Origin: an uncultured Ruficoccus sp.
GTDB taxonomy: Bacteria; Verrucomicrobiota; Verrucomicrobiia; Opitutales; Cerasicoccaceae
Assembly: GCA_965140785.1 (NCBI GenBank)
Contig: OZ223484.1
Coordinates: forward strand, 32,001 to 96,000
Length of the DNA: 64,000 nucleotides
Reading direction: 5' to 3'
Numbering within the stretch: position 1 is the stretch's first letter; each line of letters opens with the position of its first letter. The position numbers and the translations under genes are program-made. This document shows positions 226 to 30,487 of the stretch, piece by piece. The notes beneath the pieces were generated by a model. The model did not search any database and was not told the DNA's origin. It worked only from the letters and a program-made list of their open reading frames with translations.

Positions 226-1107
226 TTAATTCTGCTTAAAATTGACGAAATTTGCCTCATTGTAGCGGATGGCCTGATTGGACCAGTGCCGCATGTCTCG
301 CAGTTCCTCCTCGCTCATGGTGCGGACACTGCCGTCCATCATGGCGGTGACAGCCTTATCGTCGTGCCGCAGATGGACGAAGCCCATGTTGGAGGGGATA
401 TTCTCCGAGTAGCTGCCCCAGCGGATGCCGTCGGGCGAAATGGGCGGATTGGCGATGTAGTAGCCGATATCTTCCCAGTTCTCCGCATACTCACTGAAGG
501 TCGAGACAAACACGATTAACTCGCCGGGCTTATAGGCGACGTCGGGTCGGGTCACACAATAATCGTGCGGATAGGTGGGCGTCCCCACCCGGTCCCGGCG
601 GTCGGCATAGGTGACCGACTCTGGCGAGAGCGTGCTACTGCGGAAGTTGCCGCCGACAAAGGTCATGTTCAGGCCAAAGGACGGCGTCAGACTGACCCCA
701 TACTCGTCGCGGCGCTTATGCAGGTACTGGAAGTAGTCCTGGTGTTCCCCGATGAACAGGCCGCTCGGGCCGTCGCTCATGAGATTGGCCAGTTTCCAGG
801 GCCAGCGCATGGCCGCTTCCTCGCCCGAAGACAGAACGTGCCCGTCGAAGCCCCGGACGCTCTTCCTGGGCTCGGTTCCCTTGCCCCGTGGGAAAAACCC
901 GCCGTTATCCTGCGGATAGAGCAGGAAGGTTGTAACCAACTGCCGGGCGGCGGCACATTCGTTCGTCAGAGCGGCATGGTCCTTAACCTTCACCGTAACG
1001 GCGAAAGCCATGCTGCTGAGCAGCCCGACAACCGCGATAGCGGCTAGTAACTCTATCAGGGACAGGCCGCTGCGGGCCCGTCCAAGTCGTAGCGTATTGT
1101 TCCTCAT
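226..1107 (-). CDS. Prepilin-type N-terminal cleavage/methylation protein (pseudopilin) with H-X9-DG C-terminal motif
   Basis: Class III signal RSG|LSLIELLAAIAVVGLL; C-terminal RHDDKAVTAMMDGSV. Confidence 0.88.
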   Translation of the reverse strand: MRNNTLRLGRARSGLSLIELLAAIAVVGLLSSMAFAVTVKVKDHAALTNECAAARQLVTTFLLYPQDNGGFFPRGKGTEPRKSVRGFDGHVLSSGEEAAMRWPWKLANLMSDGPSGLFIGEHQDYFQYLHKRRDEYGVSLTPSFGLNMTFVGGNFRSSTLSPESVTYADRRDRVGTPTYPHDYCVTRPDVAYKPGELIVFVSTFSEYAENWEDIGYYIANPPISPDGIRWGSYSENIPSNMGFVHLRHDDKAVTAMMDGSVRTMSEEELRDMRHWSNQAIRYNEANFVNFKQN

Positions 1108-1120
1108 GATTCGTAGTCGT

Positions 1121-2461
1121 TTAATTATCCAGTGTGATTTGCAGGCGCATCTGCCGGACGGTTCCCTCCGGCAGGGTGTTGAGGTCGGTCATGTCGGTAA
1201 CAATAACGGTCTGGGTCCCATCTTCGTTGATGGTAGGGGAAATGTCTTCGGTAGTGTAGGTCTGGCCGGAGCCGTCGCCGTTGGAGTTCCAGGTCTCCAT
1301 GTCATTGGAAACCACCACGCGGTACTCCAGATCGGTCGCCACGGGCTGACGGCGGTAGGTCAGGGTCAGGTGCTTGCCGTCCTCGCTGATTCCGGCCTGG
1401 GGGAAGGCCGCCGGATCGCTCATCTCTTCCGGGGTACCGCCAAAGGCGTACTCAAGGAGGTTGATCAAGCCATTCTGGTTCGGGTCGGCATCGGGCTTAC
1501 CGTTGACCTCCGGATCACTGCCGGTGAAGGAGGGCAGGATGATATTATCCTTCCACTTGTCGTAGGTCTGCGGCGCGAAGACGGCCTTGACGTCGAGGTT
1601 GCCGTCGATGGTCGTCACGACGGAGGGGTTGGTCGAGTCCACGTCGCCGGTCCAACGGACGAAAACCCAGCCCGGCTCAGCCACGGCGGTCAGCACCACC
1701 TCGTCGCCCGGCTCGTAGGTGATCCGGGGACCACCGCCCCCGGAGAGCTCGTGCTCAACGGAGCCCACCGCGCCGGTGGCGAAATTCGTGTTGGTCTTCG
1801 GGAAGATGGCGTTGCTCAGCTCAGCCGAGAACCCGTCCCAGGTGTCCAGTGTGGCCCACCACAGGCTCATGCTCTCACTGGTAGAGCCAAACTCGATATA
1901 ATACTCGACCACGTCGTAGGCGCTCAGGTCCCACTCCCAGGCCATGATGCCCTGCCCGTCGTTGCTTGTCAGAAAACCGATATGGGTGTACGCGATCGGG
2001 CCGATCACGGGTCCACCCTCGGTCTCGCGGAGGTAAATGACGGCCTCCTTGTCAGGCAAGCTCCCCACCGTATTGACCTGAAAAACCACCTGGCCGGGAC
2101 TGTAGGCCGGGTCGTCATAGACCAGAAATGACGTGGGTTCGGAAAAGCTGTAGATGCCCCCGGAGCTTTGTATATACCATGCCGTATCGGTCCCGATCTG
2201 TGCCAGCACCGCGTCCCCGTTTGTGCTGTGGCTCTCGGCGGTGGGTGTGTTCACATCCTCGGGAACGGGCGTGTAAAAGGGGTTCTCCCACTCCGTGTAA
2301 GCCTCCTGTAAGCTGTCAAACTGCGCGAACTCACTGTTAGGCAAGCCATCGAAAGCCGGAATAATGTAGTTCTCCCGGAAAAACTGCGTTTCTCCGTACA
2401 GCCCTGTCGCGATCAAAGAGAAAGACAGAACTCCCAGCGCCTGCTTGCCCAACCGATACAT
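1121..2461 (-). CDS. Secreted multidomain surface protein (N-terminal domain related to the neighbouring PEP-CTERM protein; InlB-B-like repeat; DxxxNGLxNLLEYAFG tail)
   Basis: Signal peptide from ATG 2461; repeat-like TYEPGDEVVLTAVAEPGWVFVRWTGD; DPNQNGLINLLEYAFG motif. Confidence 0.75.
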   Translation of the reverse strand: MYRLGKQALGVLSFSLIATGLYGETQFFRENYIIPAFDGLPNSEFAQFDSLQEAYTEWENPFYTPVPEDVNTPTAESHSTNGDAVLAQIGTDTAWYIQSSGGIYSFSEPTSFLVYDDPAYSPGQVVFQVNTVGSLPDKEAVIYLRETEGGPVIGPIAYTHIGFLTSNDGQGIMAWEWDLSAYDVVEYYIEFGSTSESMSLWWATLDTWDGFSAELSNAIFPKTNTNFATGAVGSVEHELSGGGGPRITYEPGDEVVLTAVAEPGWVFVRWTGDVDSTNPSVVTTIDGNLDVKAVFAPQTYDKWKDNIILPSFTGSDPEVNGKPDADPNQNGLINLLEYAFGGTPEEMSDPAAFPQAGISEDGKHLTLTYRRQPVATDLEYRVVVSNDMETWNSNGDGSGQTYTTEDISPTINEDGTQTVIVTDMTDLNTLPEGTVRQMRLQITLDN

Positions 2462-2486
2462 TTTTTTTGAAAAAATCTCTTGCATT

Positions 2487-2531
2487 TGAAACTCAGTCTC
2501 AGTTTTATGCGTCTATTGTTATCGAGTCTCA
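2487..2531. promoter_or_regulatory. Fur-box-like 7-1-7 inverted repeat(s) in a divergent promoter
   Basis: TGAAACT-C-AGTCTCA at 2487-2501; weaker TGTTATC-G-AGTCTCA at 2517-2531; same motif upstream of hemS. Confidence 0.6.
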
Positions 2532-2554
2532 TTACCACAGTCAACAACGAACCT

Positions 2555-3256
2555 ATGAAAACTACGCAACTTATCGCCCTGACCGCCGCTTTGCTCGCGC
2601 CGGCTCTTTCGCACGCCGATTTTATGGCCTTCAATCTGGGCAGCCTGACCGAATCCGGAACATGGACTGACCTGAGCAATGCCAATTACACCAGCGGTGA
2701 CGGCTACCCCGGCAACTTCCCCGGCGGTTCCTCCTGGACGACGCCCATCACAGCCAGTGGCCTGGATGCCGATCTCGACATGGTCTCCGGCCAATCGTGG
2801 TTCAGCAGCTCCAGCTATATCTATAATTTCTCCGCCTCGAGCTACACGATCAGCACCACTACGCCGATCACCGGCCTGGAAACGCTCGTGCTCCAGCTAG
2901 AGAACAACGAAGGCTTCAGCAGCATCACACTGAACTATAACGGGGGCACCCAGGAGCTGGCCGCCAGCTACATCGGAACCTACACCGGTACCCATAGCTC
3001 CAGTGGTCCGGAAGGCACCAGCTATAGCAACGTAGATGTCTATCAGTGGGACCTCTCGAGCGTGGTCGGCAGCATCACCGACTATACGATCAACCTGACC
3101 ACCAACGACCACACCGTCTTGTACGGCATCAGCCTGAGCGAGGGGAACACCTACTCCACCATCGCCGTTCCCGAGCCCTCGACCTATGCCGCCCTGGCCG
3201 GTCTAGGCATTCTCGGGTTCGTGCTGCTGCGCCGCCGCAAGCTTTCCCAGAAGTAA
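2555..3256 (+). CDS. PEP-CTERM sorting domain protein (Ser/Thr/Tyr-rich)
   Basis: Signal peptide MKTTQLIALTAALLAPALSHA; C-terminal VPEPSTYAALAGLGILGFVLLRRRK. Confidence 0.93.
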   Translation: MKTTQLIALTAALLAPALSHADFMAFNLGSLTESGTWTDLSNANYTSGDGYPGNFPGGSSWTTPITASGLDADLDMVSGQSWFSSSSYIYNFSASSYTISTTTPITGLETLVLQLENNEGFSSITLNYNGGTQELAASYIGTYTGTHSSSGPEGTSYSNVDVYQWDLSSVVGSITDYTINLTTNDHTVLYGISLSEGNTYSTIAVPEPSTYAALAGLGILGFVLLRRRKLSQK

Positions 3257-3573: not shown

Positions 3574-4647
3574 TTACCCAATGGCCTTGAGGAGTTCGCG
3601 CCAGCTCTCCAGTTCGGGGCTGCCGGGCTTACGCTCGCCGAAGAACTGGACGATGACCTCGCCGTCCTTGTCGAAGACTTCCAGGGAGTTGACTTCGCCG
3701 TCGGCGGTGGGCTTGCGGACGAGCCAGCAGGAGGCGATGCCGGACTCCTTCAGGTGCAGGTTAAAGCCCGGATCGAGCACGTTGTACCAGTCCTGATACT
3801 CCATCACCTTCTTGACCGGGCCGGTGTGGATCTGGATGCAGTGGTCGTTGCCGACAAAGACCATGATCGAGTTCTGGCGTTCGCTGGCCAGGTCGAGCAC
3901 TTTGCGGGCGGCGTTGTTGTCCACCTTCTGCGTAAAGCTGCCCTCGGCCAGGCGCAGGGCCTGCTCGCGGCCGACACGGTGCTTCATCAGCAGGGGGAAA
4001 AAGTCGTGCGTGTCCTTGAGGTTCTTCCAGCCCTCGAGCAGGCTTTCCTTGTCGATCTCGGCGTCCGGGCGGTCTTCCTTGCGCGGGGCCGGGGCCTCCA
4101 CGCTGGCGCCCTGCGACTGGTCCTCGGAGCGGTACTGCTCCACGATCTGGTGGAACGGCTCGATGCCCTCGTCGCTTTTAACGTAAATCTTGTGGATGGC
4201 CGTCCCGGTCGGGTCGAAAATCTGGAGCGAACGGCTGTGCCCGCCGGGGATGGAGAGGTCCTCGACCGCGAAGGCGTGCTGCCAGCCGGCCATGAAAAGC
4301 CGCAGGTCAATGTCCTTGCCGGTGGTCAGGCCGACCTTGCCGCCGTGCACAAGCGGGTGGATCTGCTCGTATTCGCCGGTCTTCTCATGCACGCAGTTGT
4401 CGTTGCGGGTGAGGACCATGACCTTGCCCAGGCTCTTCCAGGCTTGCATGAACGGCTCCCAGTCCTTCACCTCCAGGCGCGTCACGGTGTCTCCGCACTG
4501 GGTGGCCAGCAGTTCCATCTCGCTCACGCCGAGTTCTTCAGCCGCGTTGCGGATCCGCAGTTTGGGATTGGCCTCCAGCAGCTCCGCCCAGCGGGCTTTA
4601 AGTTCCTGGGGCGACGAAGTAGCGTCGGTAATGGTCGTATTCATCAT
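3574..4647 (-). CDS. hemS: Hemin-degrading/transport factor HemS/ChuS/HmuS
   Basis: LRIRNAAEELGVSEMEL, TRNDNCVHEKTG, IQIHTGPV, QFFGERKPG; duplicated ChuX/HemS domain; start ATG 4647 or 4644. Confidence 0.95.
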   Translation of the reverse strand: MMNTTITDATSSPQELKARWAELLEANPKLRIRNAAEELGVSEMELLATQCGDTVTRLEVKDWEPFMQAWKSLGKVMVLTRNDNCVHEKTGEYEQIHPLVHGGKVGLTTGKDIDLRLFMAGWQHAFAVEDLSIPGGHSRSLQIFDPTGTAIHKIYVKSDEGIEPFHQIVEQYRSEDQSQGASVEAPAPRKEDRPDAEIDKESLLEGWKNLKDTHDFFPLLMKHRVGREQALRLAEGSFTQKVDNNAARKVLDLASERQNSIMVFVGNDHCIQIHTGPVKKVMEYQDWYNVLDPGFNLHLKESGIASCWLVRKPTADGEVNSLEVFDKDGEVIVQFFGERKPGSPELESWRELLKAIG

Positions 4648-4663
4648 AGCTTTTTTATAAGTT

Positions 4664-4678
4664 TGAGATTGAGTCACA
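4664..4678. promoter_or_regulatory. Fur-box-like site between the divergent hemS and hmuT
   Basis: TGAGATT-G-AGTCACA, a 7-1-7 imperfect palindrome. Confidence 0.6.
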
Positions 4679-4718
4679 AATACATGTCCTTTTAGCTGTC
4701 AGGTCAACACCGGAAACC

Positions 4719-5690
4719 GTGAAAAAGCCTTATCCATTCCTCCTCCAGCATCTCGGCCTCCTGGCCACGCTGCTCATCGCCCCCGCTCTGCACGCGGAAA
4801 ACTCGGCCGCCCCCGCCGTCTGCCCCATCACCGGCAAGACCGGCCCCATGCCCGCCGGCCATCCCGGCGCTGCCAGCCACCAGGCCGAGGCTCCGCAGGA
4901 GAAGGAGCGCATCATCACCATCGGCGGCGCCCCCACGGAGATTGTCTTCGCACTGGGCCGGGGGGATGAAGTTGTCGCCGACGACCTCTCCAGCACTTAC
5001 CCGCCCGAGGCGGCCCGCCTGCCCAAGGTCGGCTACATCCGGCAGATTTCGCCCGAGGGCGTGCTGTCGATGAATCCGGATCTGGTCGTGACGAGTGAGT
5101 CGCTCGGCCCGCCCCCAGCCAAGCAGGCCATGAAGCGCGTCTCCATCCCCGTCGTCTGGTGCCCGGAACCGGAGAGCCCGGAAGCCCTTTACGCTTCCCT
5201 TGAAAAGGTCGGCCAGGCCCTCGACCGCGAGGAGAATGCCGCCGCCCTGATTGCTGATATCAAAAAGCAGCTGGCCGACGTCCAGGCCGCGACCGCCGCG
5301 TGGGAAACCCAGCCGCGGGTCATCTTTTTCATGCGTCCCCCCTCCATGGACCGCCCCGGCATGGTCGCTGGAGCCAACACCCGGGCCGACGCGCTCATCG
5401 TGCTGGCCGGCGGGCAAAATGCCGCCACCGGGGTCAAGGGCTACCAGCCCTACGCGCTGGAGTCGCTCATTGCCGCTCAGCCGGACGTGATCCTGCTCGG
5501 CACCGGTATGGGCCACGGAGCCGGCCCCGGCGATGCCGATTACCTGCTGGGGCTCGATGAGCTGAGTCAGGTCCCCGCCGTGCAAAACGGACGTGTCGTC
5601 GCCGTGCCGATGGACGACCTCAGCTTCGGCCCCCGCCTCGGCGAGGCCGCCGCCCGCTGGTCCGAAACGATCTCGCCCGCCGACAGCTGA
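4719..5690 (+). CDS. hmuT: Heme ABC transporter periplasmic binding protein
   Basis: RIITIGGAPTEIVFALG, DLSSTYP, VGYIRQISPEGVLSMNPD (Tyr heme-ligand motif), LSFGPR. Confidence 0.9.
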   Translation: MKKPYPFLLQHLGLLATLLIAPALHAENSAAPAVCPITGKTGPMPAGHPGAASHQAEAPQEKERIITIGGAPTEIVFALGRGDEVVADDLSSTYPPEAARLPKVGYIRQISPEGVLSMNPDLVVTSESLGPPPAKQAMKRVSIPVVWCPEPESPEALYASLEKVGQALDREENAAALIADIKKQLADVQAATAAWETQPRVIFFMRPPSMDRPGMVAGANTRADALIVLAGGQNAATGVKGYQPYALESLIAAQPDVILLGTGMGHGAGPGDADYLLGLDELSQVPAVQNGRVVAVPMDDLSFGPRLGEAAARWSETISPADS

Positions 5691-5843
5691 TAAGCGCTGG
5701 CGACAGGAGGTGTTTTTAGGACTCCGCCCGGAATCCTTTCTTGTTACGTACGCGCGAACTGCCTTAACTGACACCTTGAACTCAAGCCGCTGCGCGGCGC
5801 CTTCCGCCCGGAAGCGCCCCGCTGGCCGTTCCCGCACCCGAGG

Positions 5844-6903
5844 ATGAATCCCGCCCGTTCCCAAACTGTTAAAACGCTGCTGCTCGTTCTGCTCGGCCTC
5901 TTCACTGTAGCCATCTCGCTGCTCAGCCTGAATGTCGGCACGGTCGAGCTGGAAACAAGCGAAACCGCCCACGTCCTCGCCTACCGCCTCGGTCTGGACG
6001 CGGAAAAACCCTCCATCCTGGCCGACACCGTGGTCTGGGATCTGCGCCTGCCGCGCATTGTGCTCGGGCTGGCCGTGGGCGCGGGCATCTCGCTGGCCGG
6101 CGCGGCCATGCAGGGACTTTTTCGTAACCCACTGGCCGATCCGGGCATCATCGGCGTCTCCAGCGGTGCCGCCACCGGCGGTGTGCTGGCAATCCTTTTC
6201 GGGGGGGTTAATGTTCCAATCCGTCCCCTTCTTCACCCAGTACGCGCTGCCGATCTGCGCCATGGTCGGCGGGGTGGTCGCAACCTTTCTCATTTACCGG
6301 CTCTCCAGTATCGGGGGGCGCACCCACATCGCCACCATGCTGCTGACCGGGATCGCGGTCAACGCCATCTCCGCCGCGCTAATCGGCTTCATCGTCACGC
6401 GTTTCGCCGACGATGCGCAGATCCGCTCCATCACCTTCTGGACGCTGGGCAGCCTGGCCGGAGCCAACTGGCACAGCGCCATCCTCGCCACCGTGCTGAC
6501 CGTCCTCGGCGGCGTCTGGGTGCTCAGCCAGTGGCGCGCGCTCAACGCCTTCCTCCTGGGCGAGGCCGAAGCCTTCCAACTCGGTATCTCCGTCCAACTG
6601 GTTAAGCGCGGCCTGATCTTCGTCACCGCGGCCATGGTCGGCGTGACCGTCGCCGCCTGCGGCATCATCGGCTTTGTCGGGCTGGTCGTCCCGCACATGA
6701 TCCGGCTCAGCCTCGGCCCCGACCACCGCTGGCTGCTGCCCGGATCGGCCATCCTCGGGGGCGCGGTCATGGTCGGCGCCGACCTGGGCGCCCGCACCCT
6801 TGTCGCCCCGGCCGAGCTCCAGATCGGCATCCTCACCGCGCTGATCGGCGGCCCGTTCTTCCTCGGGCTGCTGTTGTCGGCCAAACGCAAACTCTCGATC
6901 TGA
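5844..6903 (+). CDS. hmuU: Heme/iron-chelate ABC permease (FecCD family), split by a +1 frameshift at a G7 tract
   Basis: LRLPR and MQGLFRNPLADPGIIGVSSGA in one frame; FWTLGSL and GIIGFVGLVVPH in another; removing one G at 6201-6207 joins them. Confidence 0.9.
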
Positions 6904-6907
6904 CGCC

Positions 6908-7694
6908 ATGCTGGAGGCCCGCCAACTGACCTTTTCCTACGGCAAGCACCCCGTGCTCGACGGGGTCTCGCTCAAGCTCGTGCCCGGCAAGCTCGTCGCC
7001 CTCCTCGGCACCAACGGCGCGGGCAAGTCCACCCTGCTCAAGCTCCTCACCGGCGAGCTTCACGCCTCCGCCGGCGATGTCACCCTGGAGGATAAACCGC
7101 TGCGCACCTGGCACGCCCGCGAGCTGGCCCAGGCCCGGGCCGTCCTCCCGCAGGAGCCCCGGCTGGCTTTTAATTTCACCGTACGCGACGTTGTCCTGAT
7201 GGGGCGCACGCCGCACGTCCAGCGCGGCGAGACTTACCGCGACCGCGAGATCTGCCAGCTCGCCCTTCGCCGCGTGGATCTGCAGGACTTTGAACACCGC
7301 TACTACCTGGAGCTCTCCGGCGGCGAACGCCAGCGCGTCCACCTGGCCCGCGTCCTGGCCCAGATCTGGGAACCGCTGGAGCAAAGACCGCGCTACCTGC
7401 TGATGGACGAGCCGGTGGCCGGGCTCGACCTGGCACACCAGCACGGCACCCTGCGCATCGCCCGCGAATTGGCCGCCGAGGGCGTCGGCGTGCTCGCTAT
7501 TCTCCACGACATCAACCTCGCCCTCGCCTACGCCGACGAAACCGTTCTGATCAGCGGCGGCTGTGTCGCTGCCGACGGCCCGACCGCCGAGGTCCTGACC
7601 GAGGAGCGCGTGGAGGATGTCCTTCGATGTCCGCGCCATCCTCCACCCCAATGCCAGCGGCGCCCCCTTCATGCAGACCCTCCCCCGCGCCTGA
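6908..7694 (+). CDS. hmuV: Heme ABC transporter ATP-binding protein (apparent +1 near 7621 alters the C-terminus)
   Basis: GTNGAGKST, LSGGERQRVHLARVLAQ, LLMDEP; deleting one C at 7621-7622 gives DVFDVRAILHP...RA* ending at 7694. Confidence 0.9.
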
Positions 7695-7787
7695 GATTTT
7701 AAGCTTTTGCCCGTGGAAAAGACGTTGACAGCGCCGCCCCGGGCCGGTTGTTTAGCCGCTTACTGACCGCAACCCGGTTGCTGGTTT

Positions 7788-21171: not shown

Positions 21172-21185
21172 TTTAATCTATTAAA
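21172..21185. promoter_or_regulatory. Candidate LacI operator
   Basis: TTTAAT-CT-ATTAAA palindrome touching the LacI start codon in an 80-bp divergent gap. Confidence 0.4.
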
Positions 21186-22236: not shown

Positions 22237-23040
22237 CTACTGTCCGGCTTCGGTCATGACCACATTGACTTCAAAGGCGAGCTTATCCCCGGCACTGTAG
22301 GTGAAGGGCTTTTTCCATTTCTCTCGCTGAGACAAGTTCACCCCGATGTAATCACCGCCCCATGTGCGCGTATCCTGGATGTGCAGGGCCGTGCCCTTGG
22401 CCGGATCAATGCGAATCTGCCGTTGATCGCTGGTGATCGTAGCCGTTTGAAAACCATAGCCCTCATACTTGTCCGGCTCGTTGCTGATGGTGTAGGTGCG
22501 TTCCGTGCCCGAGCTGTCAACGATGGCCAAGGCCGCCCCCGTGAACTTCGACGGGGGAAAATTGAGCGAGAATCGCGGCGAGGCCTGCCATTGGCTGTCC
22601 TTAAGCAGAGTGATTTCCACCTGAATGTTAAGTGTGCCCTCGCCCGCCTTCCGATAGACGATGGTATAATCCGCTACCTTCGAAGTCTTATCCGAGGGCG
22701 TCTCCAAAAGCGTGCCGGAGGCCGTGACCTCCGTATTCGAGCGCTGAATCCGTACCTCATCATCCACCACAAAACCAGGCCCCTGGTAGATGGTCCCGCC
22801 CTTGTTTGCCTTGAGCAAAAATATCTGACCGGAGCCGATCACAATTTGGCCATCGGCGGTGACTCTGGCCAACCGTCCCGAGGGTGCGATCTGTGCCTCT
22901 AGCCCGGTGCCAATAGGCCAGAAAATGTCTCCCTTCGCCATGGCAGCGGTCGACATGGCCACCGCGATCAGCCCAAGAACGAGTCGATAAAAATAAGGTT
23001 TCATCATAGTCATCACAGATTCGTGTGTGTTTGTTTCCAT
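22237..23040 (-). CDS. Secreted hypothetical protein (beta-rich)
   Basis: Signal peptide ending AAMA; last gene of cassette. Confidence 0.7.
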   Translation of the reverse strand: METNTHESVMTMMKPYFYRLVLGLIAVAMSTAAMAKGDIFWPIGTGLEAQIAPSGRLARVTADGQIVIGSGQIFLLKANKGGTIYQGPGFVVDDEVRIQRSNTEVTASGTLLETPSDKTSKVADYTIVYRKAGEGTLNIQVEITLLKDSQWQASPRFSLNFPPSKFTGAALAIVDSSGTERTYTISNEPDKYEGYGFQTATITSDQRQIRIDPAKGTALHIQDTRTWGGDYIGVNLSQREKWKKPFTYSAGDKLAFEVNVVMTEAGQ

Positions 23041-23063
23041 GCGTGCTCAGGTGATAGCCGGGT

Positions 23064-25772
23064 CTATCGGATGATATCCAATTCGACATCATCGATTTCG
23101 ACCACACCGCCCGGCTCTTCCAGGCCAATCATGGCACGCATCCATCCGTACATTTCCGGTATTTGTTTGGTAACCTCGATCTCTTGCCACTCGCCCGTTC
23201 CCGTCACAGCGAGGGCATCTTCTTTCTTCGGCCAGCGACCGTTTTCGTCTACGATACTGAAGCGCAGCAGCAGTTCCTGGCCTTCTTCAATCCGTACCCA
23301 CGCCCGCAGGCACCACTGTCCGGCGCTGGTCCGCTTGAGCCGTTGCTGAACCCAGGCACCGGTTGAGGCCTGCCGGGTATCCAGGCGTATTGCCTCTTCC
23401 CCGGATCGACCCTCGACAAAAGAGAGCACGGACGGCGAGGCCTGCTGCGGGCTCAGCTTCCAATCCGTCGGCCAGGCCGTAGAAGCATCCATGATCAGGT
23501 CTCCCGTTTTCTCTTCGAAGCTGCCGTTCTTCAGCCAGTTCTCGTCTTGCCGAGAGACGGCTGTGACCGACAGCGGCTTTGGCGAGATCACGTAAGCGTC
23601 GTCAGGAAGGGCCAGCGTCAGTTCCTCCCCGATCGGCCCATCGTGCAGTGTCTCCCCATAGAGATTGGTCACCTGAACCACATCCTCCGGCTCCAGCCCT
23701 TCCACGGTCAGTTCGACACCCGTCGGGCCTGAGGCAAAATACTGGAGATACTTTCCATCGGCCCGCGACAGCTGCCAGGCTTCAAAGCGACCCTCGACAC
23801 CCGGGACCGGCCCCTCCAGGGCCTCGGCGGCAGCCAACTGCCGCGCCAGCTCCGCCGTCACGGCGAAGTAACGGGTGGGTTTCAAGTTCCCATAGTGCTT
23901 ATCGGTGTCCGTCCCCAGCAGGAAGAACTTATCCCAATCCTGAGAGAGGCCCCAAAAGGCCAGGCGAACCGTTTGGTAATCGTCGCGGGGGCTCTCGCCC
24001 ATCATGTATTGCCGTTCCGTCTGCCACAGCGGTACACCCGGCTGATCCTCGCGGGCGGCCCGCGTCGCATCCTCGATCAGCTCCCGGCGTGCGTACCCAT
24101 GAAAGGCAAAGGCATCGAGGTAATCTCCCCCGCCCAACTCTAGCATCTCGCGCGGCATGCCCAGGTCTGTGGCCTTGTCGCTGACCATACTGAACCCGGA
24201 GGACAGCACGACCGCATCCGGGTCGATCGCGTGCACTTCCTCACTGACGATTTCCAACAGGTCGACATAATCCTGCGTGGTGCCGCTGAACGAGGCTAGA
24301 CGGTTCGGCGGATGAAAATCGACCTCATTATAGACTTCCCAGTATTTGACGCGGTCATGATAGCGCTCCACCACGGCTCGCACGTAGTTCCGCCATTCCT
24401 CCAGGCTGCGGGGCTGATAGCGATCCGGGCGACGGCTCCAGTCGGTCCCGCGTCTAAACTTTTCGATGACGGGCAGAAACTTTTGATATTCCGCCGGCGA
24501 ATAGGTGCTGGCCCAGGCGGGCGGACCGGCCAACAGACCCACGGTCTGGATGACCTGTTCGGTGGATCGGTCCATGGCTTCATCGGGCACGTTCCATTCA
24601 AAATTCCCCGGCTCCGGCTCCACATTACACCAGAGGAAAAAGCGGTTGAGCCCGAAGCCCCACGCCCGGTTCCAGTGGATACCGATCTGGGTGAAGAAAT
24701 CGGGTTTAATATCCAATAGCTGATGGTGCCCCAAGTAGTCCGCCAGCGCGCCCTCGGTAGCGTCCTCCGCTGGCCACACGACAAAAGACACCTCGTAGGT
24801 CGCTGTCCGCTCGCCCGGCCCCGTCACCGTGAGCTCGGCGTCAAAGTAACCCGTCTCTTTCAGCGCAGGTAGTTGAATGGACTGCGATTGATAGTCCTCA
24901 CGGGGAACGGCAGTGAGTTGATAGTCCTGGGTGGCCACCTCGTCACCGTCCCGGTTGCGGACCCGGGCATGAATGGCGAAATCAACGTTGTGGTCGGAAT
25001 AGTTCACCACCCGCAGGGGGACTTCTAAGCCGACACCTGCTTTTCCCACCAGTACAGCCGCCCGACGGTCCGGAAAAATCCCCGCGATGTAGTCCTTTAC
25101 CTGCCAATACGTATCTCCGCGCACCAGCCCCTGCTCGGGGTCATAGGCCAGCGTCGTATGGTCATCGGGCTGGAGCGGCTCCTGCACGTTCGAGAGCTGA
25201 GCGTCCGTGCGCACATGATCGGAAATCCGCACGCCATGAATTTCAAACGCTCGCGGGTCCCCCACCGTAAAGAAACCCGGCAGCGTCGACAACTCCCCAA
25301 CAAAGCTTGTTCGGGCGACTTTGCGGCCATCGAACCACAGGCTCGACTCATCGTTGCCCCAACGCAAGGCGATCCGATACGGTCGATCCAGATCGTAATC
25401 AGGCGTAGAAGTCGACAGAGATTTCGGTCGCTGGCTGTCCTGCACGATCCCAGTGAACTCGCGGCTATCATTCGACGGACAGAAGGCAATTCCCAGCATG
25501 CTGTTACCCCCATCGCGAGCATTACCCACCGCACGAAACGGCACATACCAGTCGGTTTTCATGCCCGCCGGGCTTCGGCGCATCGATACGTCCAGTTCGA
25601 TCGTTCCTTCCTCTCGATTGATCACACCAGGGGCCCAGTAGCGCACTTGCTCAATGCTCGCTTCAACCTCTTGGGCTTGCGTGGAAACGATCCCACCAAA
25701 GAGAGCCACAGCGACCATGCCATACAAGTGAATGGCCAAGGCGGACGAAAGTATTATACCATTTTTTATCAT
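23064..25772 (-). CDS. Secreted modular clan GH-A glycoside hydrolase, paralog of 13752-16379
   Basis: YWAPGVINREEGTIELDV, YWEVYNEVDFHPP, FHGY, LWQTE, LKNGSFE; start uncertain. Confidence 0.8.
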   Translation of the reverse strand: MIKNGIILSSALAIHLYGMVAVALFGGIVSTQAQEVEASIEQVRYWAPGVINREEGTIELDVSMRRSPAGMKTDWYVPFRAVGNARDGGNSMLGIAFCPSNDSREFTGIVQDSQRPKSLSTSTPDYDLDRPYRIALRWGNDESSLWFDGRKVARTSFVGELSTLPGFFTVGDPRAFEIHGVRISDHVRTDAQLSNVQEPLQPDDHTTLAYDPEQGLVRGDTYWQVKDYIAGIFPDRRAAVLVGKAGVGLEVPLRVVNYSDHNVDFAIHARVRNRDGDEVATQDYQLTAVPREDYQSQSIQLPALKETGYFDAELTVTGPGERTATYEVSFVVWPAEDATEGALADYLGHHQLLDIKPDFFTQIGIHWNRAWGFGLNRFFLWCNVEPEPGNFEWNVPDEAMDRSTEQVIQTVGLLAGPPAWASTYSPAEYQKFLPVIEKFRRGTDWSRRPDRYQPRSLEEWRNYVRAVVERYHDRVKYWEVYNEVDFHPPNRLASFSGTTQDYVDLLEIVSEEVHAIDPDAVVLSSGFSMVSDKATDLGMPREMLELGGGDYLDAFAFHGYARRELIEDATRAAREDQPGVPLWQTERQYMMGESPRDDYQTVRLAFWGLSQDWDKFFLLGTDTDKHYGNLKPTRYFAVTAELARQLAAAEALEGPVPGVEGRFEAWQLSRADGKYLQYFASGPTGVELTVEGLEPEDVVQVTNLYGETLHDGPIGEELTLALPDDAYVISPKPLSVTAVSRQDENWLKNGSFEEKTGDLIMDASTAWPTDWKLSPQQASPSVLSFVEGRSGEEAIRLDTRQASTGAWVQQRLKRTSAGQWCLRAWVRIEEGQELLLRFSIVDENGRWPKKEDALAVTGTGEWQEIEVTKQIPEMYGWMRAMIGLEEPGGVVEIDDVELDIIR

Positions 25773-25810
25773 AGAAAAATTAACAATTAGGTAAGAGATT
25801 GCAAACGAGG

Positions 25811-26446
25811 CTAAGGCCGATGGTACCAACGCGGATCAGACGCAGACACCGCTTCGCCCGGGATGGATTCGACATGGCCATCAACAAAAAGATAGTTCGC
25901 ACTCGGACCCGGGTGCCTTGCGTCGAAATACTGCGCCCCCGAGTAGGGTGAATAGAGCTGGATGGCAGCATCCACCTCTACCACCAGGAAGGTTGAAGCC
26001 GGGTCGGGCACGTCCGCCCGGTAATTCCAATGCCGAGCATACCGGGGCGATACAAATGCATTATAAGCATAGCAAATTTCATTCTGCCGGGGACTGTTTT
26101 CATACGTATACTCGGGGCAGACGAATATTTCGGAAATTTTGGGCAGTGTTCCAGTCCCCATTGAACCTTCCAGGATTCCCGCATAGGGCTCCAGTTGCCA
26201 ATACCAGGTGGGTGAAGTTTCTCCCGAGGGGAAAACGCCTCCATGCTCCCCGGCGTACAGGTGGAGGGCGACCCCGATCTGGCGCAAGTTCGAAGCACAT
26301 CCCGTCATCCTGGCCCGGCTGCTCAGATGACTCACACCCATCAAAGACAACACGGTCAACACGCCGATAACAGCGATGGCAGCCAGTATCTCGATCAAAG
26401 AAAATCCTCTGTGGGAACTCGGTGAACAATCGGGATGGGGCAGCAT
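25811..26446 (-). CDS. Prepilin-type pseudopilin, DUF1559/H-X9-DG-like
   Basis: HRG|FSLIEIL, CASNLRQIGVA, RHPGPSANYLFVDGHVE. Confidence 0.92.
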   Translation of the reverse strand: MLPHPDCSPSSHRGFSLIEILAAIAVIGVLTVLSLMGVSHLSSRARMTGCASNLRQIGVALHLYAGEHGGVFPSGETSPTWYWQLEPYAGILEGSMGTGTLPKISEIFVCPEYTYENSPRQNEICYAYNAFVSPRYARHWNYRADVPDPASTFLVVEVDAAIQLYSPYSGAQYFDARHPGPSANYLFVDGHVESIPGEAVSASDPRWYHRP

Positions 26447-26514
26447 GGGGAAGGGAAAAATTTGAACGTTTATTATCATCTTTCGACATTAATATAGAGG
26501 CAATAAATGAAGAA

Positions 26515-26527
26515 TGTTACCCGTAAT
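26515..26527. promoter_or_regulatory. Operator copy 1 (TGTTACCCGTAAT)
   Basis: Identical 13-mer in three intergenic regions; this copy is upstream of the pseudopilin. Confidence 0.75.
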
Positions 26528-26561
26528 TCCATTCCACATTATAAAAGTCAAAATCCCGTTT

Positions 26562-28451
26562 CTATGGCACCTTTTCTCCATTAATACCAAGAGTCAATTC
26601 GACGCTTAGTGTGGCATCTTTTGTCTCCAGTAGTAAAAGCCGATAGATGCCATTACGGTTCGCCAACGATGACTCTTGCCAGTGAACAGTAACGGAGGCG
26701 GGGTCAAAACGGAGGATACATTCTTCGCCATCCCAGCGCCAGCGGACGATTCCGTTCTCGCCCGCGTTCAATATTTGGGTGGAAGCTCCGCCATCGGTGT
26801 GCAGGACAGGAATTTGCACGCCCAAAGTCTCACTGTCACCGATTTCTTCGCAGACTGTAGTCGTGAAACGCACTCCGTTTTCGTGAATGGAATACGCTTC
26901 GGCCAGACGGTGCTCGTTCCAATGATAGTAAATCGTAAAGTCGATGCCCGAGGACGTACACATCTCTACATGCAGTCGGTGATCCAACGATTCACTCAGA
27001 TCGGCCAGACGGTGCAACGTGCCCGCGGTTTTCCAGTACGACGAAAACGAAGCGTTCGCAAGGGGCCTGTGATGCTTGGGCAGGCGATAGCTCGGAGTTG
27101 CGGTAAAGGGTGTGTGCCATCCCAGCAGGTAAGACTGTCCGGTGTGGTGCACCCGCCCTAAGCCGGTAGCGTCATAGTGGAGATCTGCGCGGGTATCTAT
27201 CTCCACGTGATATCCAGCACCCGTTGCAAATACCTTGTGGAAGGCTTCGTCCAGGTGGAGGACAAAACCACCCAACTCCGCCGGACAGGGAGACTCGGCA
27301 ACAGAATCGTCTGCATAGCTGGCCGCCAGCGTCAAAAACGACGCCGCGGTAAGACCATAGCATGAATAGTGCGCGTACTTGTCTCCGCCCCAGTTGTCCT
27401 CAATGGCGAAACGGTTGCGCGCATAGCGGAATGGCTGCATGTCCAGAATCCACGGGCGGATGGCCAGGGCGGACAGATGGGCCTGTCTTTTAAACGCCCC
27501 AGCTAAAGCGGGATCGCGGGTGGCGTAGGATTGTGCTTCGGCCTCGCAGATAGCACAGACGATTGCTTCTTGAAAATGAAACTGGCTGGACCGGCCGCCG
27601 TAGGGCACCAGCCCCAGCGGGGAAAGATAGAAGAGCTGAGTAAGTGCCCCCCGGCGAAGTAATTCCTTAAAAGTGCCCAGCAGTGGCCCACGGTAACCTG
27701 ACCGCAAGGCAGCGGTAATCTGCAAGCGGGTAGTCAGGTCATAGGTAAAGGGATCGTTGGGGTCGCGATACATCCCGTAGTCCGTGAAGTGCGTCAACTG
27801 CGCGGGCATATACTTCTCGAAAAACTCGATCCCGGAAAACGCTGGAGAATCCGCGCCCACCAAGCCGTTCAACTCCCGGATGACTTCCCCTCCTGCCGCG
27901 TAAACCGTCCAGTTATTCAACTCGTGAAGATTGCAGCCGTCCGGACGCACTTGCAGGTAATGGCTTTCCGGGGCCACACGCCGCAGCGCCTCCGCCCATT
28001 GCTCCAGCAATGCCGGCGAGGTATCCGCCTCTCGAAAGGCCCCATAGGCCGTGGCCAGCTCCCGCATCCAGAAGTCGGGCGCATCGGCCTTCCCCGCCGC
28101 TAGACGCTCGCAGGCGGAGGTCATGGCTTTTTCGACCGCCGAGCGCCACTCCGGGATACGCCCCTGCCTGAGCAGGTACGCACCCGGACAGGCAAACCGC
28201 GGGGTGGCCTGTCCCCATTCCTCCCCTGTGACGGGATCGGTGATGCCGCCAGAACTATTTTGGTAGGGCGCGAACGTACGCACGATGGCCTCGGCCATGT
28301 CGAGATAGAGCTCGCGCGTCGTGCCGCTTGGACTCCAGGGAGAAAGAGGCTCCTGAGCCAACACGCGCGTCACCTCCTCCTCCAGAGGAAAGCATCCAAA
28401 CGATGGCGGACAGACTGGAGCGACAGAAGCGGATGTAGAGTCCGGTGCCAT
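26562..28451 (-). CDS. Uncharacterised 629-aa cytoplasmic protein, probably carbohydrate-active
   Basis: Long ORF inside the cassette; helical N-terminal half with NNW motif; beta-rich C-terminus. Confidence 0.75.
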   Translation of the reverse strand: MAPDSTSASVAPVCPPSFGCFPLEEEVTRVLAQEPLSPWSPSGTTRELYLDMAEAIVRTFAPYQNSSGGITDPVTGEEWGQATPRFACPGAYLLRQGRIPEWRSAVEKAMTSACERLAAGKADAPDFWMRELATAYGAFREADTSPALLEQWAEALRRVAPESHYLQVRPDGCNLHELNNWTVYAAGGEVIRELNGLVGADSPAFSGIEFFEKYMPAQLTHFTDYGMYRDPNDPFTYDLTTRLQITAALRSGYRGPLLGTFKELLRRGALTQLFYLSPLGLVPYGGRSSQFHFQEAIVCAICEAEAQSYATRDPALAGAFKRQAHLSALAIRPWILDMQPFRYARNRFAIEDNWGGDKYAHYSCYGLTAASFLTLAASYADDSVAESPCPAELGGFVLHLDEAFHKVFATGAGYHVEIDTRADLHYDATGLGRVHHTGQSYLLGWHTPFTATPSYRLPKHHRPLANASFSSYWKTAGTLHRLADLSESLDHRLHVEMCTSSGIDFTIYYHWNEHRLAEAYSIHENGVRFTTTVCEEIGDSETLGVQIPVLHTDGGASTQILNAGENGIVRWRWDGEECILRFDPASVTVHWQESSLANRNGIYRLLLLETKDATLSVELTLGINGEKVP

Positions 28452-28463
28452 AAAAGCCTGCCT

Positions 28464-29315
28464 CTAGTTGTGAGACCGCTTGCGGCGTGCGAGTCCGAGG
28501 CAAAGCAATCCCACTGTGCCGGCGATCAGGCCGGTCGTTCCAGGCTCGGGAATGGCTGTGCTCACCTCGATATTGCTATAGGTTAACGCACCGTTGGCTC
28601 CCCCTGCATACATGGAGATCATGTCGAACGTAAGGTTGCCAGGAGACGTGTCGGTATAGGTGAGCGTGCGGCCGTTGATGCTGGAGGTAACGATCAGCTC
28701 GTCGTCGATGGTACGGGTAAGCGTGAGCGTAGCGGTATAGGTTGTATCGGCTGAGGTCGGACCTGATCCGTCGGGATCCGCGGCCAGCGTGCCGGGAAAG
28801 GCACTCGAGCTCCAGAGCGTGTCATTGGTAGCGGTACGCTCTTCCAGCGTGTACGTACCGCCTTCCTCAGAAATCAAATAGGAGTAAACGCCGTAGCCAA
28901 GGTCGCTATTGAATGCCGGATCGGTGGTGCCGCCATCAGCGCTCACCTTGGAGCCATTGGAATTGAACAGGCCGAAGCGAAAGTGATTCGTGATAGTCGT
29001 GCTTGCGCCAATATCATAGGAGAAGTCGAAGGAGAAGGTCATCGTTTCTTCCACCCCGATGGTGGTGGGGGTGAAGTAGGTCACGACGTAGCCGTTGCCG
29101 GATCCGGTCGAGTTACCGACCGTCCACGCGTTTGAGGCGACGGAATCCACCCGGTCAGACGTCAAATTGGTCCGCCAGTACCAGGCAGGGTCAGAGGTGC
29201 GGTTACCGTTGGAGAATGTATCATCAATCAAGGGCGCGGCTTGGCCCGGGCAGGCCGCAAGGGCGAGCATCCCGAGCGTGAGGATCAGGGAGATATGGGT
29301 AGAATGTTTTTTCAT
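28464..29315 (-). CDS. PEP-CTERM protein
   Basis: Signal peptide; IPEPGTTGLIAGTVGLLCLGLARRKR. Confidence 0.92.
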   Translation of the reverse strand: MKKHSTHISLILTLGMLALAACPGQAAPLIDDTFSNGNRTSDPAWYWRTNLTSDRVDSVASNAWTVGNSTGSGNGYVVTYFTPTTIGVEETMTFSFDFSYDIGASTTITNHFRFGLFNSNGSKVSADGGTTDPAFNSDLGYGVYSYLISEEGGTYTLEERTATNDTLWSSSAFPGTLAADPDGSGPTSADTTYTATLTLTRTIDDELIVTSSINGRTLTYTDTSPGNLTFDMISMYAGGANGALTYSNIEVSTAIPEPGTTGLIAGTVGLLCLGLARRKRSHN

Positions 29316-29363
29316 GAAGTTCAGGTTACGTTCAACCCGGCAAACCCGTCAAACCGCGCGAGG

Positions 29364-29376
29364 TGTTACCCGTAAT
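29364..29376. promoter_or_regulatory. Operator copy 2 (TGTTACCCGTAAT)
   Basis: About 50 bp upstream of the PEP-CTERM start. Confidence 0.75.
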
Positions 29377-29458
29377 CCTGCAATAGGGAACGCCCATATA
29401 AATAGACCTTCAACCATTGAGAAGATCTGTTGAAGGCGTGTGGTGACTCACACTAAAG

Positions 29459-30487
29459 CTAAGCCTTTTCTCGCTTCATGGGCAACAGGGAGGCCCCCTC
29501 CTCCCAGGTGGTATCGACGGAAACGACCTTGGGCACGTCAGGGATACCGCGCTCGTTGCGCTGGAGTTGATCGATGACTAAATCCACGAGCGCCGAACCG
29601 ATAGACACATAATCACGACGGATGTGAGCCAGCCCGGGAATCACCGTATCGGAAAACACCTGCACCACCCCCATGGCTTCCGGGATTTGGATGCGGCGCT
29701 TGCGCAGCCACTGATGCATCACGGGCTCTGTGATCAAAATGGCATCGGGGCAGGTCGCCTCCAGCCAGCCGTCGAAGGCTTTCTCATCAAATCCCTCCAG
29801 GTAGCAGGGATCAATCCGGTGCTCTGGCTCCTGGAGAAATTGCCACCCCAGGTAACTGCCAAGAATAGCGTGGTTGGTCTGCTGGTCCGTTCTGCGACGG
29901 ATGACCAGTCCAATGCGCCGGTAGCCGCGGTGGCGCAAGAGTCGCAGGACAAGAGAAAGCGTCTGGGAATGATTACTGGCCACCCGATGAAAATCGGGCC
30001 GGGCCAGAGTATAGCCAAGCGTGGCTACGGCATAACGATCCCAGATCAGCCGAAGATGACTCAGTGGGCGCAGGGTTCCGATGATCAGACCATGGACCCC
30101 CCGGGCGAGAAGCACCTGATCCAAGCGATGCCATGTCATCTTGGGTTGACTTATCCAGATCGGGCTGAGGCCGTAACCTCTTTCCGTTGCCCGGTCTTCC
30201 GCACCGTTGAACACGTGTCCGAGGAAGTTTTTCCGCCAGCTGTTTTCGTTGGTACCCGCTGTCAGAAAGGCGATAAAGGGGCGTTGGCGGGGAGGATGCG
30301 CGGCCCGCAATTGCGCCATATGAGCGGCAATCAGAGGGTTGGGACGATAGCCGATTTGCTCGGCGATGGCCCGGACCTTCTCTGCCGTGGCAACGGAGAT
30401 AGCGCGGTCGTTGCGCAAGACCCGGGAGACAGTCATGCGGCTAACACCGGCCAATTCGGCAATCGTTTTAAGGGTAGGAGCCGACAT
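29459..30487 (-). CDS. LacI-family transcriptional regulator
   Basis: TLKTIAELAGVSRMTVSRVLR; GYRPN. Confidence 0.95.
   Translation of the reverse strand: MSAPTLKTIAELAGVSRMTVSRVLRNDRAISVATAEKVRAIAEQIGYRPNPLIAAHMAQLRAAHPPRQRPFIAFLTAGTNENSWRKNFLGHVFNGAEDRATERGYGLSPIWISQPKMTWHRLDQVLLARGVHGLIIGTLRPLSHLRLIWDRYAVATLGYTLARPDFHRVASNHSQTLSLVLRLLRHRGYRRIGLVIRRRTDQQTNHAILGSYLGWQFLQEPEHRIDPCYLEGFDEKAFDGWLEATCPDAILITEPVMHQWLRKRRIQIPEAMGVVQVFSDTVIPGLAHIRRDYVSIGSALVDLVIDQLQRNERGIPDVPKVVSVDTTWEEGASLLPMKREKA

Follow-up and report, generated by a model that had tools for sequence, protein, structure and literature searches.

We describe here a gene trio that occurs three times in a 64,000-nucleotide stretch of DNA (the window), corresponding to positions 32001-96000 of contig C13 (OZ223484.1) in the draft genome of an uncultured Ruficoccus sp. 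(4.36 Mb, 50 contigs, 90.85% complete, contamination estimate 1.21%). Each copy codes for a prepilin-like protein of the DUF1559/H-X9-DG type (hereafter pilin), a PEP-CTERM protein and a further exported protein. One copy lies beside a haem uptake locus (226-3256) and two lie in sugar cassettes (13752-18529 and 22237-29315), as an earlier note on this DNA had reported; Pfam and TIGR matches together with sequence motifs identify the trio at all three places, with the PEP-CTERM protein of copy 3 (PEP3) falling below the model thresholds. The pairing of H-X9-DG pilin and PEP-CTERM genes is non-random in this genome, and the haem-linked trio is conserved together with its haem genes in related genera. 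On balance, we think that the trios are substrate-specific acquisition modules, which use a shared type IV filament machinery, and within that reading the import of a ligand and the export or display of the partner proteins are about equally likely. Homologues of the window proteins are found in Opitutaceae, Ruficoccus, Lentimonas and further Verrucomicrobiota.

DUF1559/H-X9-DG proteins are among the largest paralogous families of the Planctomycetota and Verrucomicrobiota. To our knowledge, no function has been assigned to them, and the family is seldom mentioned in the literature that we searched. Planctopirus limnophila, for instance, is described as having 68 DUF1559 paralogues, two of which are essential (PMC10632474). 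With copy 1 of the window, the family acquires a context in the Verrucomicrobiota that is defined by a ligand, namely haem. Next to this copy, the canonical haem set of hemS and the hmuTUV ABC importer is complete (3574..7702). A TonB-dependent haem receptor usually goes with hemS-hmuTUV in other Gram-negative bacteria. Here, no TonB_dep_Rec or Plug match was obtained among the window products scanned with Pfam, and judged from its gene order the trio appears to occupy the slot of this receptor in the haem block.

Of 15 other genomes in the family, 12 contain an orthologue of the copy-1 pilin (pilin1; E<=1e-10), and approximately 19.8 kb around ten of these orthologues were compared with the window proteins by tblastn. 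Orthologues of the 454-aa exported protein and of the PEP-CTERM protein (PEP1) adjoin the pilin1 orthologue in nine of the ten loci, and the block hmuVUT, hemS-PEP-CTERM-454aa-pilin is kept in eight of them, which come from four genera; the exceptions are G048, in which only the trio is found, and G073, in which only the pilin is found. In five genomes of three other genera, hmuV-hmuU-hmuT are located on one strand and hemS-PEP-454aa-pilin on the opposite strand, and in G152 gaps of ~50-120 nt separate the four co-directional genes hemS, PEP, 454aa and pilin. The window's own genus differs by an inversion that affects the PEP gene only, the rest of the block order being the same, so that PEP1 is divergent from the 454-aa gene here and co-directional with it in the three other genera. 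The block persists with identities down to 32-37% for the pilin and 28-33% for the 454-aa protein. In three of the orthologous haem loci, a Pfam analysis of 48 open reading frames (ORFs) revealed no TonB receptor, and the flanking genes were unrelated. With the trio syntenic with hemS-hmuTUV in eight of ten related loci, the haem link is much stronger than the earlier note could tell.

Copies 2 and 3 are paralogous cassettes, in which the trio is combined with large exported hydrolases of the glycoside hydrolase (GH) clan A type and with LacI-family regulator genes (Table 1). Their pilins, pilin2 and pilin3, are 42% identical, and the PEP-CTERM proteins PEP2 and PEP3 resemble each other at the C-terminal end only. 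Copy 1 is similar to copies 2 and 3 in architecture only, its partner proteins being different. The GH113 and GH10 genes beside copy 2 hint at mannan and xylan as its substrates. A search of 200 other genomes from the order (E<=1e-20) yielded no member of the family of the 875-aa hydrolase of copy 2, so that both sugar cassettes, in contrast to the haem block, are judged to be young.

To place the three copies in the context of the whole genome, we counted 66 prepilin N-terminus sites, 32 H-X9-DG sites and 58 PEP-CTERM sites; 31 of the prepilin sites have an H-X9-DG match downstream in the same direction. A PEP-CTERM site lies within 3 kb of 11 of these 31 H-X9-DG pilin sites, with ~2.5 expected, versus one of 35 other pilin sites (Fisher p 6e-4, binomial p 1.6e-5). 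The same comparison was made on 4054 genes called by frame competition, a procedure that reproduced the Pfam-supported genes of the window except a FabA-like ORF (9613-10530). Using hidden Markov model (HMM) matches only, a PEP-CTERM gene was present within two genes of 10 of 30 H-X9-DG pilins and 2 of 35 other pilins. When a regular expression for the PEP-CTERM tail, which recovers 52 of 59 HMM-flagged genes, was added, the counts became 18 of 30 and 10 of 35, respectively, versus 396 of 4054 (9.8%) for all genes (p 1.9e-11); the earlier note had named co-location at the level expected from family size as a refutation of its idea, and the finding withstood this check. At nine loci, the PEP-CTERM gene is immediately upstream of the H-X9-DG pilin gene on the same strand.

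The pairing is also seen in other genomes. In a genome of the same genus, a PEP-CTERM match lies within 3 kb of at least 4 of 10 H-X9-DG matches, and in four more distant genomes the same measure gave at least 1 of 5, 1 of 7, 0 of 2 and 0 of 3; these counts are lower bounds, based on the 150 of 251 PEP-CTERM matches that were listed. Around 79 pilin loci from other species, an ORF with a PEP-CTERM tail is directly adjacent on the same strand in 17 cases and present within 3 kb in 28, and 45 such ORFs are located on the pilin strand versus 7 on the opposite strand. Seventeen of these loci were scanned with Pfam for 150 of their 156 same-strand ORFs, that is all except L032:50-646, L035:290-817, L035:824-1279, L040:422-982, L070:12036-12536 and L048:9-491. 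Six of the loci belong to Verrucomicrobiota and are sugar operons; one of these, with the order PEP, 830-aa protein, pilin and GH113, resembles copy 2.

The gene neighbourhoods within the genome likewise tie the pilins to substrates. Our survey covered 30 H-X9-DG pilin loci, the three in the window and 27 outside it, and for the latter Pfam was run on those called genes within four genes of each pilin that code for 90 aa or more (212 genes). A sugar-type regulator (LacI, AraC, GntR-PBP or ROK) is found within four genes in 19 of the 30 loci, a carbohydrate-active enzyme (CAZyme)-type gene (GH, PL, CBM, sulfatase or beta-helix) in 21, and one or both in 24. Eight loci contain an inner-membrane importer within four genes, of the type SSF (L001, L002, L012 and L013), MFS_2 (L004 and L027), MFS_3/MFS_1 (L009) or ABC (L021). 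In L021 (C48:27334-38078), the H-X9-DG pilin gene is the last one of an ABC sugar-importer operon, which has the order solute-binding protein (SBP), permease, permease, pilin, and in L027 the pilin gene is located between MFS_2 genes and a gene for a cytoplasmic GH; both loci have importers without an adjacent exported enzyme. The genome contains 55 LacI matches, and a LacI gene lies within 5 kb of 19 of 52 solitary pilins and of 0 of 14 clustered, machine-type pilins; conversely, a pilin is located no more than 5 kb from 20 of the 55 LacI genes. Since many pilins missed by the H-X9-DG model behave alike, the class is probably larger than 31.

All three window pilins match the prepilin model TIGR02532 (22.5, 29.7 and 28.1 bits; cut-off 16.3). 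Pilin1 also exceeds the cut-off of TIGR04294 (19.5 bits) and gives no PF07596 match, and pilin2 is marginally below the cut-off of 19 with TIGR04294 (18.2 bits). Pilin2 possesses the residues Gly-1, Phe+1, Glu+5 and Pro22 and has more than 3500 homologues. An alignment of 48 of them showed conservation of the motifs G-F-T-L-x-E and D-G-H-V, with F, T, L and E conserved to at least 90% and D-G-H-V without variation; Gly-1, Phe+1 and Glu+5 are likewise at least 90% conserved, and Pro22 is part of the consensus. An AlphaFold2 (AF2) model of pilin2 (pLDDT 95.2) contains a helix spanning residues 8-58 and four strands. Based on this motif conservation and the modelled pilin fold, the protein looks assembly-competent. 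A Foldseek search with the model returned no match at E<=1e-3; in a VIA comparison, the top 19 rows were all pilins or pseudopilins (PilA4, EpsG, PulG and minor pilins; Z 3.3-5.9). Solved structures match the pilin2 sequence over the N-terminal helix only. Taken together, the fold and sequence searches suggest that pilin2 is a pilin with a head of an unsolved type and not a solute-binding fold. A solute-binding-protein fold of the head, as implied by the Pfam name SBP_bac_10, had been considered and was rejected, as it is absent from the 50 VIA rows shown. With the GspG equivalog model TIGR01710, scores of only 25.0 and 20.7 bits were obtained, compared with a cut-off of 88.85 and over residues ~14-86 only, so the proteins do not qualify as GspG, and Pfam identified no gsp genes among the scanned window products. 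PEP2, for which just 8 homologues were found in a large protein collection, is predicted to have a ConA-like jelly roll as its ectodomain; the AF2 model (pLDDT 66, core blocks 74-89) gave VIA Z values of 12-14 to GH16, legume lectin, PL7/PL14 lyase and CBM66 chains. Partner proteins in sister loci contain CBM_4_9, Laminin_G_3 or PATR domains according to Pfam.

The genome encodes the machinery that such proteins would need. We found one prepilin peptidase (Peptidase_A24), five secretin and seven T2SSE-type ATPase matches, and a canonical type II secretion system (T2SS) cluster with secretin and ATPase is located on contig C40. The H-X9-DG pilins are orphans, remote from the assembly genes. With orphan pilins, a single prepilin peptidase, five secretins and seven ATPases, a shared machine seems to us the only economical reading of the gene content. 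Exosortase matches (PF09721) above the cut-off are present on C34, C10 and C26. TonB-type receptors are scarce: TonB_dep_Rec has 2 matches in this genome, 0-2 across the five genomes of the genus and 2-9 in the other eight family genomes searched. One of the two belongs, as SusC, to the sole SusC/SusD pair of the genome (C9); neither the scanned window proteins nor the 212 neighbours from the 27 pilin loci outside the window include such a pair. Inner-membrane importers are plentiful, with 30 SSF matches at 23 places, the nearest located 7 kb before the window start and 13 kb past its end. The lineage is thus short of the outer-membrane step and not of inner-membrane importers. The scarcity concerns the outer membrane, with two TonB-type receptors and one SusC/SusD pair; conventional inner-membrane importers, of which the earlier note recognised none in 13752-41440, are part of the system as a whole, as SSF, MFS or ABC genes are present in 8 of the 30 pilin loci. 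The idea in the earlier note that each pilin is a substrate-specific subunit of a shared machine fared better: the module is real, recurrent and tied to substrates and its pilins are orphans, and the sharing is suggested by the single prepilin peptidase.

We propose that each trio forms the envelope component, specific to its locus, of a set of genes for nutrient acquisition. The PEP-CTERM protein would be exported by the Sec pathway, processed by exosortase and act as a ligand binder on the cell surface, in copy 2 by means of a lectin-type jelly roll. The second exported protein would be either an additional binder (the 454-aa protein of copy 1) or the first depolymerase (the 875- and 921-aa hydrolases). 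The orphan H-X9-DG pilin would be cut by the single prepilin peptidase and then built into a shared type IV filament or T2SS-like machine, where it could act as an adaptor coupling the binder of its own locus, and the ligand, to the secretin channel. The module would in this way take the genomic place that TonB-dependent receptors (HmuR or SusC/SusD) have in other Gram-negative bacteria. Once past the outer membrane, the ligand would be handled by inner-membrane importers (HmuTUV; SSF, MFS and ABC transporters in sister loci) and cytoplasmic enzymes (HemS; GH113, GH10 and GH36), which complete the job.

Several known systems show partial similarities to this arrangement. GspG/PulG pseudopilins and type IV pilins have the same class III signal with Gly-1, Phe+1 and Glu+5 and a long N-terminal helix followed by a beta-sheet head, and they require a prepilin peptidase together with a secretin and an ATPase, for each of which this genome has genes. 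Unlike these proteins, the H-X9-DG pilins are encoded by orphan genes in substrate loci outside the machine operon and have dozens of paralogues, and their head bears the H-X9-DG signature and has no close solved counterpart. That type IV filaments can take in large molecules is known from competence pili, which import DNA through a secretin. The polysaccharide utilisation loci (PULs) with SusC/SusD and the hmuR-hmuSTUV loci likewise group, substrate by substrate, regulator and surface binder with exported enzymes, importer and cytoplasmic enzymes; unlike them, the loci described here lack an outer-membrane TonB-dependent component and have a pilin and a PEP-CTERM protein in its place. In the archaeal 'bindosome', sugar-binding proteins carry pilin-type signals and are positioned for uptake, whereas here the pilin head would have a pilin fold and the binder would be the separate PEP-CTERM protein. 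As in PEP-CTERM/exosortase sorting, the PEP-CTERM proteins combine a C-terminal PEP motif with a transmembrane helix and a basic tail, and exosortase genes are present in the genome; what differs is the systematic pairing with a pilin gene. Our literature search yielded no published account of this pairing or of the haem block.

A pseudopilin in a glycan locus is already in print. In Verruconatronum alginivorum (Opitutales), a pulG-like pseudopilin with 67 paralogues is encoded in an alginate-induced cluster; 14 of 17 genes over-expressed on alginate are located in two alginate clusters, and a further pseudopilin encoded elsewhere is also over-expressed (PMC13274419). This is likewise a verrucomicrobial glycan locus with its own pseudopilin, and it differs from the loci described here in that TonB systems are reported for the organism and no haem context is described; the term PEP-CTERM does not occur in that paper. 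In Akkermansia, pilus-type mul genes are needed for mucin uptake (PMC13174399, PMC12418764). The MUL2 system is again a verrucomicrobial pilus-type system for glycan uptake or attachment, but it is encoded by a single conserved locus (Amuc_1099-1102), which codes for a PilM-like protein as well as an archaeal-type pilin, and does not have an orphan pilin for each substrate (PMC13174399, PMC12418764).

Import is consistent with the operons in which a pilin is combined with importers only, with the empty haem receptor slot and with the small number of TonB-type receptors. A number of points weigh against our acquisition reading or limit its reach. The VIA Z values of pilin2 do not exceed 5.9 and are below the level that the tool regards as trustworthy, and the confidence of the PEP2 model is only moderate. 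No PEP-CTERM gene is present within two genes of 12 of the 30 H-X9-DG pilins, and six of the 30 loci (L009, L015, L020, L025, L026 and copy 1 of the window) are non-sugar loci, some of them of a housekeeping type. The 11 Planctomycetota loci among the 17 scanned loci, in which the order is pilin then PEP-CTERM, have no neighbours with CAZyme Pfam matches (in these loci, Rfam at gathering level identified tRNAs only); the sugar context is therefore not universal, and set beside the Verrucomicrobiota loci the missing CAZyme neighbours suggest that the pair of pilin and PEP-CTERM protein is the conserved core and the sugar context one use of it. Haem could be carried by the TonB-type receptor on C46, which follows an ExbB-ExbD-ExbD-TonB-TPR operon, and oligosaccharides could be admitted by porins. 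In many cassettes a large enzyme with a signal peptide is encoded directly after the pilin, which fits export as well as import; together with the GspG-like N-terminus of the pilins, it is this arrangement that is consistent with export, and the authors of the Verruconatronum alginivorum study propose export of alginases by the T2SS and not import (PMC13274419).

The most serious alternative, which we regard as somewhat unlikely, is accordingly one in which the pilins serve export only. Each would be a cargo-selecting pseudopilin, with which a shared T2SS moves the exoproteins of the locus (the PEP-CTERM protein, the large hydrolase or a haemophore-like 454-aa protein) across the outer membrane, while the ligand enters through porins or the few TonB receptors; the module would still be nutritional, and the pilin would never contact the ligand. 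In addition to the points just given, of which the N-terminal likeness to GspG has to be read with TIGR01710 matches far below the cut-off, this account is supported by the canonical T2SS cluster on C40 and by the requirement of PEP-CTERM proteins for some route across the outer membrane. The type IVb minor pilins TcpB and CofB, which bind the secreted proteins TcpF and CofJ, offer a parallel. However, the pilins of L021 and L027, which stand with importers and cytoplasmic enzymes, do not fit an export role, and the entry of haem and oligosaccharides across the outer membrane would be unexplained in a genome with two TonB-type receptors. Moreover, classical T2SSs are not known to need a separate pseudopilin for each cargo.

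Conversely, one might extend the acquisition reading to a modular type IV filament import system present throughout the Planctomycetota-Verrucomicrobiota-Chlamydiota (PVC) group, in which every nutrient locus, here those for haem and several glycans, provides its own pilin and an exosortase-anchored binder, a shared secretin and ATPase pull the ligand through the outer membrane and TonB transporters have been replaced. In this general form we consider the proposal unlikely; if true, it would explain the hundreds of DUF1559 paralogues in the PVC phyla.

It is quite improbable that the pilins are alternative subunits of adhesive pili, which are made upon substrate sensing, and the PEP-CTERM proteins independent surface lectins, with no transport involved. 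For such co-regulated adhesion speak the lectin-type folds of partner proteins, the surface-attachment role proposed for the type IV-like MUL2 pilus of Akkermansiaceae (PMC13174399) and the binding of dextran to pili-like fibres of Planctomycetes, for which the authors also speculate about uptake (PMC5394234). It would leave unexplained why the pilin is conserved in a haem-uptake block over four genera and is present in an ABC-importer operon, and also the tight same-strand pairing with PEP-CTERM genes. Finally, a chance origin, in which two large and fast-duplicating families (66 pilin sites and at least 58 PEP-CTERM sites) land near each other and near CAZymes without a functional link, can hardly be correct, for although both families are large and the sugar cassettes of the window young, co-location greatly exceeds what is expected and is restricted to the H-X9-DG class, the strand bias of 45 versus 7 is seen in other genomes and the haem block is kept across genera while its flanks change.

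Our preferred reading of the trios as acquisition modules bears on the question of how abundant glycan degraders without SusC/SusD pass their substrates over the outer membrane, and it points to a poorly understood, testable mode of nutrient acquisition in a bacterium almost without classical outer-membrane receptors. Haem uptake is easily assayed, by growth on haemin as iron source and by haem-binding spectra, so that the question is directly testable, and knockouts in cultivable Opitutales-type relatives would separate the import from the export model.

Within the sugar cassettes, the 875-aa hydrolase has a TIM-barrel core with distant similarity to GH10, which is flanked by a LamG-like region at the N-terminus and a CBM4_9-like one at the C-terminus; the match of the protein to xylanases of the PDB (7e-7) is confined to residues 370-467. 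This protein and its 921-aa paralogue may represent an undescribed family of the GH-A clan. A relationship of the 213-aa protein of copy 2 with the CBM-like end of the 875-aa protein was considered and dropped, as the similarity is not significant. For the 629-aa protein of cassette 3 there is an Atlas lead only, to DUF2264 and ulvan-lyase-like clusters. The tail of PEP3 (IPEPGTTG...RRKR) is visible by eye and fits the tail regular expression, with its model scores below threshold. The earlier note had reported that no TonB receptor, MFS, SSS or sugar ABC gene is recognisable between 13752 and 41440, and among the scanned products Pfam gave no TonB, MFS, SSF or ABC-permease match; likewise, GH113, GH10 (460 aa) and GH36, as well as the 629-aa protein, have no N-terminal hydrophobic segment by the hydropathy heuristic and hence, as claimed for the three enzymes, no recognisable signal peptide. 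By contrast, its statement that each copy has its own regulatory site was not upheld, as only the two LacI genes of Table 1 were found; inverted repeats were absent from five of six intergenic stretches of the window, no Fur box was matched in it at up to 3 mismatches, and promoter-like and terminator-like counts did not exceed those in shuffles. Rfam at gathering level identified tRNAs only in the window and in four other pilin loci of the same genome.

Table 1. Features of the three trio copies and of adjoining genes in the window. Cut-offs in bits are TIGR02532 16.3, TIGR04294 19, PF07596 23.3, PF07589 20.7, TIGR02595 16 and TIGR01710 88.85; signal-peptide calls are from a simple hydropathy heuristic on the N-terminal hydrophobic segment.
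Feature	Position	Strand	Remarks
pilin1, 293-aa prepilin-type H-X9-DG protein	226..1107	-	last gene of haem-linked trio
454-aa exported protein, copy-1 secreted partner	1121..2485	-	signal-peptide-like N-terminus
PEP1, 233-aa PEP-CTERM protein	2555..3256 (likely start 2555; ORF from 2480)	+	PF07589 31.3, TIGR02595 27.8 bits
hemS/chuS-like	3574-4677	-	HemS/ChuX match 4.3e-79
hmuT	4719-5690	+	Peripla_BP_2 1e-35
hmuU	5932-6903	+	FecCD 4.5e-58
hmuV	6908-7702	+	ABC_tran 2.2e-29
875-aa exported hydrolase, GH-A clan type	13752..16379	-	signal peptide; weak GH10, GH42 and CBM_4_9 Pfam matches
Small exported protein, 213 aa from MKKYPN	16396..17037 (ORF to 17172)	-	no family found
pilin2, 201-aa DUF1559/H-X9-DG prepilin	17054..17659 (ORF to 17689)	-	PF07596 34.4, PF07963 28.5 bits
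PEP2, 278-aa PEP-CTERM protein	17693..18529	-	TIGR02595 23.7 bits; Pfam PF07589 13.7, below cut-off
GH113, cytoplasmic	18550-19725	-	upstream of copy 2, same direction; no signal peptide
GH10, 460 aa, cytoplasmic	19722-21104	-	upstream of copy 2, same direction; no signal peptide
LacI-family regulator, divergent	21185-22231	+	upstream of copy 2; Pfam
267-aa exported protein	22237..23040	-	last gene of cassette 3; no known family
921-aa exported paralogue of 875-aa hydrolase	23064..25829	-	39% identity over 900 columns
pilin3, DUF1559/H-X9-DG prepilin	25811..26479	-	PF07596 34.6, TIGR04294 19.2 bits
629-aa protein between PEP3 and pilin3	26562..28451	-	no signal peptide; no family
PEP3, 283 aa, PEP-CTERM-like tail	28464..29315	-	signal peptide; PF07589 18.4 versus 20.7; no TIGR02595 match
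LacI-family regulator upstream of cassette 3	29459..30487	-	PF00356 E 7.1e-18

The 454-aa protein of copy 1 contains an InlB B-repeat (Flg_new_2) domain (PF18998, E 6.7e-9) and a C-terminal 'NLLEYAF' region. It may be a haemophore, an idea for which the Atlas returned only Flg_new_2 clusters at 0.77 and Pfam and NCBIfam nothing further. A trio of similar composition is found at L026 (C48:353450-364810), in the context of an iron regulator: downstream of a Fur gene lie genes for a PEP-CTERM protein (357 aa), a 470-aa protein and an H-X9-DG pilin of 293 aa, and another PEP-CTERM gene is convergent to them. As the similarity to the copy-1 trio is weak and limited to the end regions, the two are not orthologous copies.

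Some further observations concern other pilin loci and receptors. L021 is located next to genes for LacI, an 833-aa protein and an exported GH66 and looks like a dextran-type locus. Five Pirellulales-type loci (L044, L052, L069, L070 and L088) share a conserved unit of a ~240-aa DUF1559 pilin, a ~300-aa PEP-CTERM protein and a 340-410-aa protein, with no CAZyme neighbours and no Rfam element. The SusC/SusD pair (C9:15838-20567; L140:5838-10567) lies on a 44-kb contig beside esterases and hybrid-sensor-like fragments with Y_Y_Y/Reg_prop in the manner of a Bacteroidota-style PUL, and it could have been acquired horizontally or the contig could be a contaminant. The sole Cobalamin riboswitch candidate of the genome (C10:385505-385577) scores 29.1 versus 31.5 bits, below the threshold, and has no listed pilin site near it; three of the four other genomes in this genus gave similar sub-threshold matches. 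An 829-aa ORF (C10:609636-612125; L007:9505-11994), located directly after an amylase/GH42 locus with a pilin, contains a PF03175 domain of organellar/viral family-B DNA polymerases and may be part of a self-replicating mobile element.

In the window itself, a lipid cluster (9613-13513) with genes for a FabA-like dehydratase, a beta-ketoacyl synthase and a membrane fatty-acid desaturase is located between the haem locus and the sugar cassettes. Further downstream, the region 42000-52500 has a low GC content of 0.46-0.47 and codes for a phage-type integrase (43695-45227), an IS-type rve transposase (46498-47478), a helicase-like AAA protein, a zeta-toxin-like kinase (49495-50139) and an HTH/M78 peptidase. 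A tRNA gene is located at 52934-53007, and the region is probably a mobile element that has become integrated.

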